The notes under the pieces are model-generated. The model did no database searches, was not told the origin of the DNA, and worked only from the letters and a program-made list of their open reading frames with translations. The position numbers and the translations under genes are program-made. DNA of 33,075 bases from a virus (lineage: Duplodnaviria > Caudoviricetes). The stretch is from positions 1 to 33,075 of the IMG/VR virus record IMGVR_UViG_3300025517_000005, one strand, 5' to 3'. This document shows positions 2,062 to 17,148 of the stretch, in pieces. How positions within the stretch are numbered: position 1 is the first letter of the stretch; every line of letters starts with the position of its first letter.

Positions 2062-3036
2062 TTATACATACGCCCTCTGCAGTTCCAAACAGTGCCGATA
2101 AAGTTCCCCTGTAACCAGACAGTCACTCAACGCTTCGTGGGAAGAGAAGGTGTCAAGGCCGAGGTATTGTTTTAGGGTCTCAAGTTTATGGTTATCCGTG
2201 TCTTTGATGTGCCTTCTTGCAAGGGTGAGAGTATCGACGACTCTAAATTTTTGATAAGGCAGATTTTCAGCATACATGTTATGTAGCAAGAATTTCATAT
2301 CGAATGGCGCGTTATGGGCGACGAGTGTATCAGATTCAATGAAAGAAAGCAACTCGGGCAATTTTTCTTTGATGGACGGTGCGCCGATTAAGTCATCATT
2401 TGTAATGCCGGTTATCCTGGTTATGTTCGTAGGGATGGGTATGCCAGGGTTGACTAAAGTGACGAATTCATCAATCTTTTGATGGTTTTCAAATTTGACG
2501 GCCCCGATCTGAATGATTTTGCTGTTTTCTGGTTTCAATCCGGTTGTTTCAAAATCAATAACAGTATAATTATTTGGATAAACTCTCGCTTTTGTGTATT
2601 TAAAATAATCGGCTTTGCTGACCTTTGTCATGTTCCTTTTGGCAGGCGTCGACACTATGTTTTCGACAGGTTTTTTATTCTCAGTTTTTGCGCTCTCGAT
2701 TTCTTTTTTCAGTGCAGTAATTTCAGTGTTTAACATGCTGATTTGCTTTTCGAGTGCATCTTTTTCTTGCTGCAGCTTGATCGTATCCTGGACAACATTT
2801 TCTTTTTTCAGTTCCAACTGTTGAATCTCTCCTTTGTTTGGATCTGGTTCGTGGGTGGCAGGCTTGGACTGCTGCATATGTTTTTTAAACCTTTTGATTG
2901 AAACAGATCGCGTGATTAGAAGAATGATAGCGATAAAAAGGAAGAAGACACTTGCTTTCCAAAGAACAGCCAACAGGCAGATCAGCCAGGGCGAATGATA
3001 CCATTTTTCTTTATAGATATTCATGTGAACCCCCAC
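2062..3036 (-). CDS. DEDDh (DnaQ/PolC-like) 3'-5' exonuclease with N-terminal transmembrane segment and coiled coil
   Basis: ExoI VIDFETTG, ExoII LVAHNAPFD, ExoIII HEALSD; hydrophobic WLICLLAVLWKASVFFLFIAIILLI; heptad-rich linker. Confidence 0.88.
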   Translation of the reverse strand: MGVHMNIYKEKWYHSPWLICLLAVLWKASVFFLFIAIILLITRSVSIKRFKKHMQQSKPATHEPDPNKGEIQQLELKKENVVQDTIKLQQEKDALEKQISMLNTEITALKKEIESAKTENKKPVENIVSTPAKRNMTKVSKADYFKYTKARVYPNNYTVIDFETTGLKPENSKIIQIGAVKFENHQKIDEFVTLVNPGIPIPTNITRITGITNDDLIGAPSIKEKLPELLSFIESDTLVAHNAPFDMKFLLHNMYAENLPYQKFRVVDTLTLARRHIKDTDNHKLETLKQYLGLDTFSSHEALSDCLVTGELYRHCLELQRAYV

Positions 3037-3053
3037 TTGTAAATTTATAAATT

Positions 3054-3971
3054 TTAATAAGTTTCATCCCAAAAGTCATTTTCATGGACAATCACGATAG
3101 GGGAGCCTGCTTTTCTCAGTTGAACGGCTTTTTCAACTTTCCGGCCATAGCAGGAGTAAGCCCAACATGGATTGCCATCAGCTCCGACAATCAGATAATT
3201 TGTCTTTTTATTGACGTTATTATTAAAGATTCCACCTTTGTTATTGATAATTTCGGCGATTTCATTTCTTGTTGCTCGAGCAGACGTGCCGGTAAAGGAA
3301 AAAATCTTATTTTCAAAAGTGATCTCTGGACAGACAGCACAAATACCATTAATTGAAAATTTTTCTTGCAGGGACCGAATCTCCGGTTCATGAATATTAT
3401 GAGAGAGTTTCGTGTCAATAAAGTTAGCAAAAAACGCGGTCAACATGCTTTTTTCTTCTTTTGTAACGACCCCGTCATGTTTTACTGCAGTTAGTAAGCT
3501 ATCGATTTCGTCAAATGGGTAGGTACCTTTCAGAAGAAAACTATGATTTTCCATCCATTCTTCCAACTGGTCAATTTCAGTATCATCCAATTTACGATCT
3601 GCCAGCATGCCATGTAGAATACCTTCCAGTTCTTGAATGGACACGGTGACTAGGTCATAAAATTCATCAAACTCGTCCTGATGGAGAATACGATTGCAAA
3701 GCCATTGGATATCCTGAATTTCTTCTTCGTCAAGCTGACCATCATCTAAAGCGCTATCAATCATAGGTATGATTTCATTAAACGGAGAATTGTTTTCCAA
3801 ATGCCGATGAAGATTGCACCAATGAAAAACTTCAGCCAGTTCTTCATTAGTAATAATGCCGTCATATTGAATACCTCTGATCAGTCCCATGAGAGAATTA
3901 ACAGCTTTATGTAATTCAGCTTTTGTTGTATACATGCGGTATTCATTGACTTCGGAATATTGTTTTCCCAT
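3054..3971 (-). CDS. BRCT-domain protein with tandem TerB-like acidic helical repeats
   Basis: C-terminal ligase-type BRCT (FSFTGT...GG...VNKKTNYLIVG...KVEKA...IVHENDFW); two N-terminal repeats with DGxxxxxE motifs. Confidence 0.8.
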   Translation of the reverse strand: MGKQYSEVNEYRMYTTKAELHKAVNSLMGLIRGIQYDGIITNEELAEVFHWCNLHRHLENNSPFNEIIPMIDSALDDGQLDEEEIQDIQWLCNRILHQDEFDEFYDLVTVSIQELEGILHGMLADRKLDDTEIDQLEEWMENHSFLLKGTYPFDEIDSLLTAVKHDGVVTKEEKSMLTAFFANFIDTKLSHNIHEPEIRSLQEKFSINGICAVCPEITFENKIFSFTGTSARATRNEIAEIINNKGGIFNNNVNKKTNYLIVGADGNPCWAYSCYGRKVEKAVQLRKAGSPIVIVHENDFWDETY

Positions 3972-6042: not shown

Positions 6043-6318
6043 ATGTCCATGTTAAAAGTTGAAATCGATGAACAGGAAGTACGGAATCTTTACCTGGAAA
6101 GAATCGAAGAAAAACTGAAACAAGTGGATGCAGAGCTTGTGTTTTGGGATTCAGCCGAGCTGAAGCGTCGCACTGGTATGAGCTGGAACACCATTCTAAA
6201 GGAATTTTTCTACGACGAACGCTTTCCAAAATACAAAGTTGGCCGAGATTGGCGCTTCCCGGCGGAAGAAACAAAACAGTTTCTATTAACTTGGCTAAAA
6301 GAGCAGCCGAGACATTGA
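6043..6318 (+). CDS. Putative excisionase-like winged-helix DNA-binding protein
   Basis: WDSAELKRRTGMSWNTI...FPKYKVGRDWRFP pattern; early-operon position. Confidence 0.6.
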   Translation: MSMLKVEIDEQEVRNLYLERIEEKLKQVDAELVFWDSAELKRRTGMSWNTILKEFFYDERFPKYKVGRDWRFPAEETKQFLLTWLKEQPRH

Positions 6319-6330
6319 GGAGGAAATGAA

Positions 6331-6612
6331 ATGTTGAAAGTTGACCAATTTTTGCGGCAGGATTTGGCCAAGGCAATCGTTGAGTACAAATGTGCATTTG
6401 AACTCAGCAAGGAGGCTACAGCATTGCTGATCCGTGAAAATGACTTTGAAAAGAGCATCCAGTATACGGAAGATCTGCTGAAATCGCTTAAAGCGTTGCA
6501 GAAGATGAAAGAGAAAAGGGAAATGCTGGAGCGGATCCATAAGGTGGCTATTGAGTTACAACAACAAAATGTTGATATCAAAACGATCGTTTTGAAGAAA
6601 GCAGGTATATGA
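6331..6612 (+). CDS. Hypothetical phage protein (helical)
   Basis: GAGGAGG RBS, operon position. Confidence 0.75.
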   Translation: MLKVDQFLRQDLAKAIVEYKCAFELSKEATALLIRENDFEKSIQYTEDLLKSLKALQKMKEKREMLERIHKVAIELQQQNVDIKTIVLKKAGI

Positions 6613-11266: not shown

Positions 11267-11722
11267 ATGATGGAACAATTGAGTTTTCAGCTGGCAGAGA
11301 TTGACCGGGAAGAGACAAGGAAGCGGGTGGAAGGTGCATTGGAAAAGTATAGGGTTTTGTTGCTAACGCAGGAACTGGACCAGGTGCCAAAAGTAACCTC
11401 AAGCTATTCATTGGTTCCACCAAGCAACACCAACCAGTTTCACTCCTCAACTGAAGAAGCTGCAGTAAAGAATGTGGACTATGAACGCGAGCGGAGCGAT
11501 TATATCCGTAAAGTTTCCATGTCCGTAAACCGTCTCGGGTTTAAGGAGCGGGCAATCCTCATCCGCCGGTATATGACGGAGGATGATGTATTTGATTATG
11601 AAGTGTACAACGAACTGAACATGAGCGAGCGGACTTATCACAGAATAAAATCTCGGGCATTTTATAAGCTGGCATTTGCGTTGAAAGTTGAAGTCTATAA
11701 AGAGAAGGAGATGAGTGTATGA
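11267..11722 (+). CDS. ArpU-family late transcriptional activator
   Basis: PKVTSSYSL...SSTEEAA...IRRYM...DYEVYNELNMSERTYHRIKSRAFYKLAFAL; AAGGAGG RBS. Confidence 0.9.
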   Translation: MMEQLSFQLAEIDREETRKRVEGALEKYRVLLLTQELDQVPKVTSSYSLVPPSNTNQFHSSTEEAAVKNVDYERERSDYIRKVSMSVNRLGFKERAILIRRYMTEDDVFDYEVYNELNMSERTYHRIKSRAFYKLAFALKVEVYKEKEMSV

Positions 11723-12261
11723 ATGTCGTCCAACCGATTCGCGATCCCGTTAAGATAGAGAAGATGAAGAACTATTTGAAATCAAAGAGTGAAAGGAATT
11801 ATATTCTTTTTATGTTGGGAATAAGCGTCGGACTTAGGATATCCGACATTTTAAAATTGAAGAAAGAAGATATATTAAGAAGCCATATTGATATTAAGGA
11901 AACGAAAACAAAGAAAAACAAAAGGGTAAAAATCCCCGGTTACATTAAAAAGGAGATCATACCTTACGCCAAAACACTTGCAGACGGCGATTACCTTATT
12001 AAAAGCCGGCAGGGAGCAAACAGGCCAATTGACCGTTCAACAGCTTATAGGATACTGCGTGATGCTGCTAAGCATGTTGGGCTGACAGACATCGGTACGC
12101 ATACATTAAGAAAAACATTTGGCTATCATTTTTACATGCAAACAAAGAATGTGGCCCTGCTGCAAGAACTACTAAATCATTCGAGACCGGATATTACGCT
12201 ACGGTATATCGGAATTAATCAGGATACGTTAGATAAGGCAATGGACAAATTCAGGATATAG
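11719..12261 (+). CDS. Short tyrosine recombinase (catalytic domain only)
   Basis: GLRISDIL, HTLRKTFGY, LNHS, LRYIG; ATGA overlap with arpU. Confidence 0.92.
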   Translation: MNVVQPIRDPVKIEKMKNYLKSKSERNYILFMLGISVGLRISDILKLKKEDILRSHIDIKETKTKKNKRVKIPGYIKKEIIPYAKTLADGDYLIKSRQGANRPIDRSTAYRILRDAAKHVGLTDIGTHTLRKTFGYHFYMQTKNVALLQELLNHSRPDITLRYIGINQDTLDKAMDKFRI

Positions 12262-12730: not shown

Positions 12731-12785
12731 TGGCAGGATTTTGGCAGGATAAAGGCAGAGCATTTTCTTTTGCCTGTGTTACATT
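12731..12785 (+). promoter_or_regulatory. Putative activator-dependent late promoter with GGCAG direct repeats
   Basis: TGGCAGGAT at 12731 and 12742, AGGCAG at 12753 (11-bp period); TGtTACATT extended -10 at 12777-12785; upstream of packaging genes. Confidence 0.62.
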
Positions 12786-12807
12786 AATACCATGACAAGT
12801 AAGCGAA

Positions 12808-12840
12808 GGAATCGACACACAGTCGGTTCCTTTTTATTTT
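12808..12840 (+). terminator. Intrinsic terminator just downstream of the putative late promoter
   Basis: GGAATCGAC-ACACA-GTCGGTTCC followed by TTTTTATTTT. Confidence 0.7.
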
Positions 12841-12860: not shown

Positions 12861-12980
12861 ATGAAATCTAAATCCAGAGAGAAGAAGCAAAAGAAACTGC
12901 GGCGTAAAGAATTAGAATACCTGATGGGGATCCATCGTGACAGGTATGGCCGACATCATGGTGCAGTTCGCAGGAAGTGA
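12861..12980 (+). CDS. 39-aa highly basic small protein
   Basis: GAAGGTG RBS; MKSKSREKKQKKLRRKELEYLMGIHRDRYGRHHGAVRRK. Confidence 0.65.
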   Translation: MKSKSREKKQKKLRRKELEYLMGIHRDRYGRHHGAVRRK

Positions 12981-13045
12981 CCTTCAATAACTAATAAAGA
13001 GACATATGGACACATATAAGAAGGTGGGGGAGCGATAAAAAAGAA

Positions 13046-13264
13046 ATGGCTGACTTTCCAAGTGCCAGGATTAGACCGGAAAGAATTTATGATATGAAGG
13101 CTAATATTAAAGATCTTGAACCAGAACGATACAACTATCTTTTTAATAATGGTTTATTGACAATAAATGAAGTACGAACATTTGAGGGACTTCCGAATAT
13201 TGGTGCTGAAGGCAATAAATTATTTAGGCCTTTAAAGAAAAGAAGAAAGATTCCTTTTGGGTGA
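13046..13264 (+). CDS. 72-aa protein containing an HK97 portal C-terminal-like motif
   Basis: NGLLTINEVRTFEGLPNIGAEGNKL versus this phage's portal NGLLTPNEARALEEREPMPGGDQL. Confidence 0.6.
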   Translation: MADFPSARIRPERIYDMKANIKDLEPERYNYLFNNGLLTINEVRTFEGLPNIGAEGNKLFRPLKKRRKIPFG

Positions 13265-13269
13265 TCAGC

Positions 13270-13641
13270 ATGCCAGGCAAACCACTGCGGCCATGTGCAA
13301 AGTCCGGCTGCCGCAATCTTACCACGAACGGCTACTGTGATGAGCATAGGAAAGATACTAATCGTGAATACAATCTGACACGAGACGAGCGGGTCACGCG
13401 CTTCTATAAGTCGAGGCAATGGGAAATGACAAGGAAGTTGGTGCTTGTTAGAGACCATGGTCTATGCCAGATGTGTCTCAAACATAGAAAAATCGTACCA
13501 GCATCGCTTGTTGACCATATCATTCCGGTACGGGTTAATTGGAGTTTGCGGCTTAATAAAAGCAATCTTCAGTCGCTTTGCGTTTCATGCCATAATGTCA
13601 AAACAGCGGAAGACAAACGAAAGTACGGAAACCTTGCATGA
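13270..13641 (+). CDS. Terminase-associated HNH endonuclease
   Basis: RDHGLCQMC, VDHIIP, NLQSLCVSCHNVKT; directly upstream of terS. Confidence 0.93.
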   Translation: MPGKPLRPCAKSGCRNLTTNGYCDEHRKDTNREYNLTRDERVTRFYKSRQWEMTRKLVLVRDHGLCQMCLKHRKIVPASLVDHIIPVRVNWSLRLNKSNLQSLCVSCHNVKTAEDKRKYGNLA

Positions 13642-13735: not shown

Positions 13736-13748
13736 GGGGGTGATTGGA

Positions 13749-14285
13749 ATGGCGGGCAGGCCGTCAAAACCAGTGCAGCTGATCAAAATGGAGGGGAACA
13801 AGGATCGCCGGACGAAAGCAGAACTTGAGCACCGAGAAAATTATGAAAAGTCCCTTTATACTGGAACAAAGATCAAAGAGTCGCCCGCCGTCAAATCTGA
13901 TCCTGTTGCCCACAAAGAATTTTTACGGCTGAAAAAACTTTATAAGAGCATCCAGTACATTGACGGCTTGGATGAGCAGATCGTCAACCGGTACTGCATG
14001 ATGATAAGTGAAGAGCGGGCACTTCAGGAGCAGGCCGATTCTTTGCATGCACTTCTTGAAGAGGAAGAAGATCCAAAAGAAAAGATTGAGATTTACAAAC
14101 TGCTCAACAGCTGCGATACCAAGCTAACCAAAAAGCGGGACTTGATCTTGAAGATTGAGGACCGTCTTTTTCTGAATCCGACTGCCCGCATCAGAGCCAT
14201 TCCAAAGAAACCTCCTGAAGAAGAGAAGCAATCTCCAATGGCTGAATTTTTAAAGAAACGCGCGGGTGGTAGCCGTGCGGATTGA
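13749..14285 (+). CDS. terS: Terminase small subunit (P27-like)
   Basis: MAGRPSKP start, D..IVNRYC, LFLNPTARIR; precedes terL. Confidence 0.88.
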   Translation: MAGRPSKPVQLIKMEGNKDRRTKAELEHRENYEKSLYTGTKIKESPAVKSDPVAHKEFLRLKKLYKSIQYIDGLDEQIVNRYCMMISEERALQEQADSLHALLEEEEDPKEKIEIYKLLNSCDTKLTKKRDLILKIEDRLFLNPTARIRAIPKKPPEEEKQSPMAEFLKKRAGGSRAD

Positions 14286-15861: not shown

Positions 15862-17148
15862 ATGAGTTTACTCAGCAGATTTAAAAGGCAAAGGGTCAAA
15901 AACTATCATATTGATGATCCGAATTGGTTATCAGAATGGCAGACACTGGCTGATTTTTTAGGGGTTAGCCTGGACCCGTCTGATGTGGACGTCCGGGGAA
16001 AACGGGCGCTGAAAGAAATTACGGTGTATGTATGTATCAAAATTTTATCTGAAAATATTTCAAAGCTGCCGGTCAAGATTTACCAGGACAACGGGGGAAT
16101 TAAGAAAGTGGCCGGGCATTACCTGAATCCGATTTTGCGGTTAAGGCCGAATCCGTACATGTCTGCATCAGATTTTTGGAAAGGTGTTGAGGTGCAGCGG
16201 AATATTTACGGAAACAGCTATGTTTGGATTGAGTATGTCACACGCGGCCGGAATGCCGGCAAGGTCCAGGCACTTTACTTGCTTGACGCTCAGCAAATGC
16301 AGGTATGGGTGGATGATTCCGGCTTAATTAGCTCAAAAAACTCCATCTGGTACGTCTATACAGACAATGCAGGGGTGCAGTACAAGCTTCAATCAACTGA
16401 TTTGCTGCATTTTAAAGCCATGACGACTGACGGGATCGTCGGTCTCAGCCCGATCTATACGCTCAGAAATATGGTTGAAAATGCTGCTTCAGCTGAAAAA
16501 TTTTTGAATAACAGCTATAAAAACGGAATGCAGACGACTGGGATCATACATTATACCGGAGATCTGAACGAAAATGCCAAGAAAAAGTTCAGGGAAAAAT
16601 TCGAGGAAATGTCAAGCGGGCTGAAAAATGCTAATCGTGTGAGCTTAATGCCTATTGGCTATACCTACCAACCTCTTTCACTTAAATTAACGGATGCTCA
16701 GTTTCTTGAAAACACGCAGCTGACTTACCGGCAGATTGCAAGTGCATTCGGCATTAAAGCACATCAGCTCAATGACCTTGTAAAAGCCAGCTATGCAAGC
16801 ACGAGTGAAGCGAACCGGGAATTTTACGTAGATACACTCATGCCGATTTTGACCATGTATGAACAGGAATTGACGTATAAGCTGTTTTTGGATAGTGAAC
16901 TGGTAAACGGGTTTTACGTTATGTTCAATGCGGATGCCATCCTACGTGGAGATTTCAAATCACGCATTGATGCGGCAGCAACCGGTGTACAAAACGGCCT
17001 GCTCACGCCAAATGAAGCAAGGGCACTTGAAGAAAGAGAGCCGATGCCAGGCGGTGATCAGCTGGTCATGAACGGGAATTATATTCCGTTGTCGATGGTG
17101 GGCGAGCAATATAAAAAAGGCGGTGATAATACAAATGGGCAAACATAA
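15862..17148 (+). CDS. HK97-family portal protein
   Basis: VYVCIKILSENISKLP, RPNPYMS, GNSYV, GLSPI, LTPNEAR. Confidence 0.96.
   Translation: MSLLSRFKRQRVKNYHIDDPNWLSEWQTLADFLGVSLDPSDVDVRGKRALKEITVYVCIKILSENISKLPVKIYQDNGGIKKVAGHYLNPILRLRPNPYMSASDFWKGVEVQRNIYGNSYVWIEYVTRGRNAGKVQALYLLDAQQMQVWVDDSGLISSKNSIWYVYTDNAGVQYKLQSTDLLHFKAMTTDGIVGLSPIYTLRNMVENAASAEKFLNNSYKNGMQTTGIIHYTGDLNENAKKKFREKFEEMSSGLKNANRVSLMPIGYTYQPLSLKLTDAQFLENTQLTYRQIASAFGIKAHQLNDLVKASYASTSEANREFYVDTLMPILTMYEQELTYKLFLDSELVNGFYVMFNADAILRGDFKSRIDAAATGVQNGLLTPNEARALEEREPMPGGDQLVMNGNYIPLSMVGEQYKKGGDNTNGQT

Follow-up and report, generated by a model that had tools for sequence, protein, structure and literature searches.

What is a second piece of portal sequence doing in a phage that already has a portal? 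The window analysed here is the whole 33,075-bp virus record, which ends in terminal repeats and holds the genome of a temperate siphovirus-like phage with integrase, HNH, terS, terL, HK97-type portal, Clp-type protease, capsid and tail genes. An earlier note on this DNA had drawn attention to a free-standing 72-aa open reading frame (ORF) carrying the C-terminal motif of portals. This ORF, hereafter the mini-gene, is indeed intact at 13046–13264 on the + strand; an intact portal gene lies 2.8 kb downstream, and the same ORF is also present in a Heyndrickxia faecalis prophage (locus L012). The features discussed below are these, with their evidence in brackets:

13046–13264, +: mini-gene, encoding the 72-aa stand-alone portal-crown protein P0001 (ORF, GC3, PHROG and profile matches)
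13121–13225, +: crown-like core, residues 26–60 (AlphaFold2, alignment, HHalign)
12981–13264, equivalently 12977–13260, +: optional 284-bp cassette with the mini-gene (absence from L004, joint in X7)
12977–12980, +: left GTGA repeat, containing the stop codon of the 39-aa ORF (sequence; junction in L004 and X7)
13261–13264, +: right GTGA repeat, containing the mini-gene stop and the GTG start of HNH or part of the HNH ribosome-binding site (RBS) (sequence)
13021–13032, +: putative mini-gene RBS, 13 nt from the ATG (sequence, duplex energy)
12861–12980, +: 39-aa basic ORF upstream of the mini-gene, shared with the cassette-less L004 (phrog_3928 and phrog_23181, E 2e-6 to 8e-6)
13261–13641, +: packaging-type HNH endonuclease (Pfam HNH, E 1.9e-11; phrog_144)
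13740–14285, +: terminase small subunit, terS (phrog_83, E 5e-22)
15862–17148, +: full HK97-type portal, 428 aa (Pfam PF04860, E 1e-98; closest solved chain HK97 portal 8CEZ)
16969–17085, +: crown segment of the full portal, residues 370–408 (HHalign against the mini-gene family profile)

Homology of the mini-gene to the portal crown

The segment quoted earlier does align with the real portal at 16993 (BLASTP, 9 of 13 residues identical, pairwise E 0.003), a match that is weak but consistent with the other comparisons. Against a crown profile of 35 portals fetched with a portal query only, the mini-ORF scores 17.9 bits, a value that none of 20,000 shuffled sequences reaches (best 15.0). Against a broader 48-portal profile, in which seven rows were chosen by motif and which is hence biased toward the mini-ORF, it scores 36.5 bits and is the only scoring non-portal frame among the 941 in the window. 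PHROG portal families also match it (E 4e-4 to 3e-3), and tblastn of a phage collection gave 31 records, 22 of which are non-Lactococcus matches inside portal genes or their synonyms. HHalign aligns the mini-gene family profile with the 48-portal profile at 97.3% (E 2.5e-11) over 39 columns, pairing residues 27–66 with portal residues 370–408. The profile match being limited to this portal segment, the mini-protein retains the crown only, with wing, stem and clip missing. The C-terminal crown sequence motif of HK97-family portals is present, and Pfam PF04860 itself covers the protein at profile positions 300–321 only, with 11.2 bits, below its gathering cut-off of 39.1. These sequence comparisons show that the mini-gene derives from a portal, its homology being to the C-terminal crown in portals of the HK97 type.

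The mini-gene is no piece of the portal of its own phage. Over the 17-codon motif, the DNA of the two genes is identical at 27 of 51 positions and the same codon is used for only two of the nine shared residues, so that, as the earlier note had held, the mini-gene is not a recent internal duplication. It lies before HNH and terS and not between terL and the prohead protease, a slot filled by the full portal, and a check for decaying fragments near the mini-gene found neither a second portal-like frame nor a broken frame.

AlphaFold2, run on a two-sequence alignment, predicts helices at residues 26–34 and 40–47 with a pLDDT of 79–87 over residues 21–60. In the predicted layout of the core, the first helix is followed by a G-L-L-T-I-N-E-V-R cap with the second helix and by a G-L-P-x-I-x-x-G loop. 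Columns L38, T39, N41, E42, R44, G48 and L49 are invariant in alignment A5, and surface residues of the crown core differ between subfamilies. We take the invariant residues to resemble helix-capping and core-packing positions (a T-x-x-E capping box), and their role may be no more than to hold so small a domain in its fold; the need to fold might by itself keep a free mini-domain closer to the canonical sequence. The top five rows of a Foldseek PDB search are all portals, matched at their C-termini with weak E-values of 0.04–0.3. VIA-align places the model on portal residues 338–378 and 361–410 (Z 2.6–2.9, rmsd 3.9–5.8 over 41–49 residues), scores tied with those of unrelated chains, and model residues 23–63 align with residues 338–378 of the DT57C portal. 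The family profile also aligns, weakly (E 0.33), with residues 320–369 of T5 pb7, in which the crown spans residues 337–377 according to the text covered of PMC11313276. The structure comparison of the model agrees with the sequence evidence and adds little by itself.

The mini-gene lies in an optional 284-bp cassette

A near-identical phage, at locus L004, has an HNH protein with 98% identity; exactly 284 bp are missing from it between the two GTGA copies, and its 39-aa gene runs straight into HNH. In the DNA run X7, one of four, a metagenome contig joins 12976 to 13261 with a 4-nt microhomology and another contig covers the ORF. The mini-gene is an optional gene, with clean presence or absence among close relatives. 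The GC content of the cassette is 0.34 compared with 0.42 for the window, and the GC3 of the mini-ORF is 0.24 compared with 0.49–0.54 for HNH, terS, terL and the portal. This composition suggests that the cassette was inserted from another gene pool, a direction that we infer, and the locus combines presence and absence between close relatives with atypical composition, as moron-type genes do. Compared with two other genomes, in which HNH is identical too, the window copy has 0 differences in 284 positions.

Judged from gene order, the mini-gene probably belongs to the late operon. The earlier note had put it at the head of that operon; it is the second gene after a putative late control region, behind the 39-aa ORF at 12861–12980. 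A promoter and terminator scan gave no + strand site inside the cassette (sites found compared with chance: promoters 3 and 3.8, terminators 1 and 1.3), and the cassette appears wired into the late operon. The mini-gene stop overlaps the HNH start region (GTGA); for the HNH start, the RBS duplex is stronger for the ATG at 13270 than for the GTG at the right GTGA repeat. The poor RBS spacing remarked on earlier is borne out: a spacer of 13 nt separates the GGGGGAG core from the mini-gene ATG, compared with about 7–9 nt in relatives, and the duplex of this site with what we take to be the anti-SD motif has an energy of -10.7 kcal/mol. RNA-library contigs of one study cover the mini-ORF at a flat contig depth and hence cannot be told from DNA, and two other RNA runs have no contig there.

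Several other features of the window deserve mention. A 10-codon ORF at 13007–13039, within the cassette, overlaps the mini-gene RBS and is perhaps the end of a gene that lay upstream in the donor. The block at 12731–12833 contains a hairpin, three GGCAG repeats and what may be an extended -10; homology between the window and L004 begins exactly at this block, which is likely the late control region and presumably of an activator type. A 180-aa tyrosine-recombinase catalytic-domain gene (11719–12261) lies just ahead of the late region, and similar genes precede the late region in L145 and L146. At 2062–3971 on the minus strand, within the immunity region, a BRCT-domain protein adjoins a membrane-anchored DEDDh-type exonuclease (RNase_T, E 4e-37); the two are possibly an accessory or defence pair.

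A family of short crown proteins beside HNH

A single-sequence search with P0001 among 5.8 billion clusters found only the protein itself and no close relative, and an exact-pattern scan gave only the window phage and three full portals. A search of 1.84 billion sequences gave nine matches, one of which is a real relative (P0007, from Neobacillus), and three inspected among the other seven are unrelated or repetitive proteins. The family was built by iteration from P0007 through genome searches to a profile search, in which 82 of 1,442 candidate proteins matched at E ≤ 10. Of these 82, the 24 top-scoring protein clusters are 59–78 aa long (E ≤ 1.4e-10), and all 20 named ones are called ‘hypothetical’; three further rows were counted as fusions, and the other 55, many of them portal fragments on short contigs, were left uncounted. 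Forty-nine viral loci contain the motif, comprising 17 short frames (one in the window phage), one fusion, 29 long portal-sized frames and two that run off the contig. In 18 of 18 loci among those listed (22 in total), a count that includes some prophages twice, the mini-gene is found upstream of terS and no further than two genes from HNH, and a full portal is present in 13 of the 14 mini-gene loci tested. One carrier prophage (L175) has no portal detected in its 12-kb locus, and its head module may be deleted.

Carriers are rare in genome samples. A class-wide sample contains one in 400, and the same one, besides the own prophage, was found in the order sample; the family of G294 has four carriers in 91 genomes and that of G004 none in 43. 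G702, with internal stops, and non-phage matches were dropped from these counts. Five queries against a 50,697-record phage collection found no named phage with a stand-alone copy among the matches listed (40 of 203 for one query); PHBA67-J, considered as a carrier, shares only the Zn-ribbon part. A query with P0057 found no viral locus, and Pfam contains no family describing the short form.

Members of the family, located next to packaging genes in many Bacillus-group phages, have unrelated N-termini and only the core in common, and in some proteins the crown core is fused to a Zn-ribbon or other small phage domains. Many have Lys/Arg/Pro-rich tails, which are not conserved and are acidic in the pumilus type. 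The two subfamilies follow host groups by source names, the pumilus group and the subtilis group, which may only reflect gene pools. The HNH neighbourhood also gathers many unrelated small genes.

Some short crown-bearing frames stand apart. On a 2-kb metagenome contig (L229, one of 46 loci), a 67-aa crown-only ORF at 1233–1436 directly follows a 407-aa major capsid gene; together with P0043 and P0053 it retains slightly more portal-like sequence than the Bacillus family, and these ORFs are possibly of separate origin. A hydrolase-like frame ending in the crown motif just before a capsid-like gene (L230:105–719, 1-kb contig) is possibly a crown-tagged fusion or an assembly artefact. Three modules, namely a Zn-ribbon, a phrog_9442-type domain and the crown motif, recur in varying order in the small genes near HNH (P0033, P0035, P0007, L159:442–945, L095, L015 and L197:3995–4408). 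In the short non-Bacillus proteins P0057, P0058, P0078, P0084, P0085 and P0086, the crown motif is joined to non-portal sequence, some with a C-terminal Zn-ribbon. The gene after the L192 mini-gene (6098–6586) has a faint second crown-like segment of only 4–6 bits, which was not counted.

The crown core is under purifying selection

A dN/dS comparison of the kind proposed in the earlier note gives, at the family level and for the gene up to the motif end, an omega below 1 in 34 of 34 pairs (range 0–0.85), with p < 0.05 in eight, although the pairs are not independent. The significant pairs are four of the six pumilus-type and four of the 28 subtilis-type ones; the 24 more distant subtilis-type pairs give an omega of 0.36–0.85. 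Between the pumilus-type L168 and L187, the 27-codon core shows 15 synonymous changes and 1 non-synonymous change. If the 9-residue search pattern is left out, the pumilus-type pairs give an omega of 0.27–0.55 with p < 0.05 in one of six. Synonymous sites are saturated between the subfamilies. The crown core is under purifying selection, which is strong in the pumilus-type subfamily and modest outside the search motif. The sequences combine a constrained core with flanks that turn over.

These data also bear on the condition under which the earlier reading would have had to be given up, namely that homologues occur only as decaying pieces of full portals. The relatives found are intact and short, with well-spaced RBSs and an omega below 1, and lie beside HNH in phages that also have a full portal. 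Truly broken portals, frameshifted in L241, L244 and L249–L251, look different: they retain wing sequence and are located in the portal slot.

The mini-gene does not follow the portal of its carrier

Mini-proteins score higher against each other (median BLOSUM score 51–69) than against their own crowns (8–45). Among 61 portal crowns, the window mini core ranks that of its own phage 49th and three pumilus-type minis rank theirs 55th to 57th; the minis of L105 and L186 rank theirs 2nd and 5th, and over 13 loci the ranks run from 2 to 58. An identical 27-aa core accompanies two unrelated portals (L147/L187 and L192). In loci with a subtilis-type portal and HNH in view, the mini-gene is present in 12 of 29 and absent from 17, and one degenerate own crown is shared by carriers and non-carriers; in window-type loci it is present in one of 40, the window phage itself. 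These ranks, the shared core and the presence in 12 of 29 loci with the same crown argue that the mini-gene is dispensable and does not co-vary with the own portal. Self-immunity by crown divergence was considered and dropped, since carriers and non-carriers share their crown and no sign of a crown change is seen. The suggestion in the earlier note that the mini-protein modulates assembly of the own portal is likewise weakened, because the minis do not track its crown.

A tentative crown mimic and the alternatives

A patchy, selected, late-region gene that ignores the portal of its own phage is best fitted by a mimic directed at an outside crown-binding partner. We tentatively propose that the mini-protein is a late-made crown mimic that competes for a crown-binding partner of the host or of a rival phage. 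An optional phage gene would encode a free copy of the portal crown, probably produced late in infection, as the gene order suggests. The free crown would fold independently, as predicted by AlphaFold2, and might bind in trans, soaking up or blocking a crown-binding partner from outside the carrier phage. The partner may be a sensor encoded by the host or by a prophage, or it may be among the proteins with which a rival phage assembles its portal.

Portals are frequent triggers of defence, in Bacillus as elsewhere, as far as the sources covered go. In the parts of these sources that were covered, the Avs4 epitope comprises stem, clip and a portion of the wing (PMC12847820), the portal interface of SpbK lies in clip, stem or wing and not in the crown, and Swarozyc (DUF4062) engages stem/stalk and clip in a structure where the crown is unresolved (10.64898/2026.05.01.722283). 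The covered text of PMC10275583 has no passage on the crown. An Avs4 decoy, as envisaged in the earlier note, thus fails, as the Avs4 epitope lies outside the crown and is missing from the mini-protein; what stands of that reading is a portal-derived, free-standing gene that is no recent duplicate. The three mapped sensors speak against a crown mimic in general. In its favour, the text covered gives no confident complex model and no mapped epitope for Avs11 (10.64898/2026.01.04.697583) and no mapped epitope for Rip1 and RAZR, which sense portal rings (review PMC13434031), and the 80alpha crown is a docking site needed to load the gp44 ejection protein (PMC12889711).

The data on the family itself also cut both ways. 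The mimic reading is favoured by the retention of the crown only, by accessory behaviour typical of conflict genes (the clean presence or absence of 284 bp; 12 of 29 and 1 of 40 loci), by a constrained core with variable flanks, unrelated N-termini and fusions, by disregard for the own portal, and by subfamilies that follow host groups. It is disfavoured by the occasional high rank of the own crown, the degenerate crown shared by subtilis-type carriers and non-carriers, the modest selection outside the 9-aa motif, and the long RBS spacer and lack of variation of the window copy. The invariant residues, which presumably serve as helix caps and core packing, may also do no more than maintain the fold.

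A bolder form of the mimic reading, to which we give a little less credence, is that Bacillus-group phages have repeatedly cut out the portal crown as a free mini-protein, shuffled beside the cos/HNH locus as a weapon. If true, this would be the first portal-derived decoy and would point toward an immune system, so far undescribed, that senses crowns, or toward sabotage of rival phage heads at the level of the crown; the fusions would be crown-tagged cargo.

It is rather unlikely that the free crown serves the head of its own phage, using a surface tolerant of sequence changes to dock on the own portal or its crown partners, whereby it would adjust ring closure or, as a tag, direct fused passengers into the head. 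Such a role would suit the constant position beside packaging genes in the 18 loci listed, the crown-only ORF after the L229 capsid gene and the fusions to Zn-ribbon and other small domains. It would also suit the YonE model, in which, in the text covered, all four portal subdomains contribute to subunit contacts, and, by analogy only with an SPP1-type portal, the loading of gp44 by the 80alpha crown. However, the gene is dispensable in close relatives with the same portal, identical cores accompany unrelated portals, and the HNH neighbourhood gathers unrelated small genes as well.

Still less probable is a co-opted fold, in which the crown hairpin would be a small module in its own right whose work has nothing to do with portals; the most plausible task would be to bind DNA or self-associate near cos, along with HNH and the terminase. 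Portal crowns contact packaged DNA (text covered of 10.1101/2023.02.24.529869), Lys/Arg/Pro-rich tails occur in many members, the conserved residues look like those that maintain a fold, and the module is shuffled with other small domains; yet the basic tails are not conserved, and no non-portal fold stands out in the structure searches.

A relic or silent passenger, the window copy or the whole family being a functionless portal tail left by recombination, is improbable: the 13-nt spacer, the ambiguous RNA-library contigs, the few significant subtilis-type pairs, the omega of 0.36–0.85 in the more distant of these and the want of a close relative of the window copy among 5.8 billion clusters would suit it, but family members are intact with textbook RBSs and an omega below 1 throughout, their synonymous sites are saturated between subfamilies, true broken portals differ, and the cassette preserves the stop/start overlap with HNH.

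Comparison with known systems

Of the portal domains, the crown is the least understood, and it is difficult to probe since portals are essential; a dispensable free crown of 60–70 aa under selection would be a direct handle on crown-binding partners. A host sensor as partner would mean that portals are sensed at more than clip, stem and wing and that phages turn structural genes of their own into decoys. Should the partner be a portal or head protein, the mini-gene would encode a naturally occurring modulator of portal assembly, or else a cargo tag.

Like the crowns of HK97-family portals (PF04860, phrog_12; HK97 gp3 8CEZ, T5 pb7 9ILP, phiXacJX1 gp1 9LBN, GBSV1 9I8C, DT57C 8HQO), the mini-protein has a predicted two-helix hairpin with G-x-x-T-x-N-E-x-R and G-L-x-x-I-x-x-G. 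Unlike these portals, it has 72 and not about 420 residues, lacks wing, stem and clip, and is encoded by a separate optional gene. Moron-like accessory genes of temperate phages are low in GC, cleanly inserted and patchy, and lie between conserved neighbours. The cassette shares these properties but differs in being derived from a core structural gene and, as far as a scan that gave no more sites than chance can show, in having no promoter or terminator of its own.

Two collections hold similar short sequences. One, phrog_25202 (53 positions, function unknown), matches the same motif in several members and gave one long-frame match in 301 genomes. ESM Atlas clusters of 58–87 aa contain look-alikes that score 0.92–0.95; a minority PF04860 label is attached to some of these, and portal fragments may be among them.

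Portals are immune triggers for Avs4, SpbK, Swarozyc, Avs11, Rip1 and RAZR, also in Bacillus; in the text covered, the mapped epitopes are clip, stem and wing, and neither a crown-binding sensor nor a portal-derived decoy appears. A survey of the literature on truncated, decoy, dominant-negative and crown-deleted portals, covering mostly openly available papers, likewise gave no free crown protein. The counter-defence protein Nip shows, in the text covered, that phages carry small counter-defence genes; unlike the mini-protein, it is SH3/HU-like and binds a TIR domain. The 80alpha crown is a docking site for another protein, gp44, but it belongs to the SPP1-type portal itself, with no free crown protein in the covered text of PMC12889711. 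For annotation, short motif-bearing proteins in the HNH–terS region should not be discarded as portal fragments. The mini-gene family is built from a part of the portal though it is no portal itself; it is well defined though unannotated, and would be of the accessory-mimic kind.
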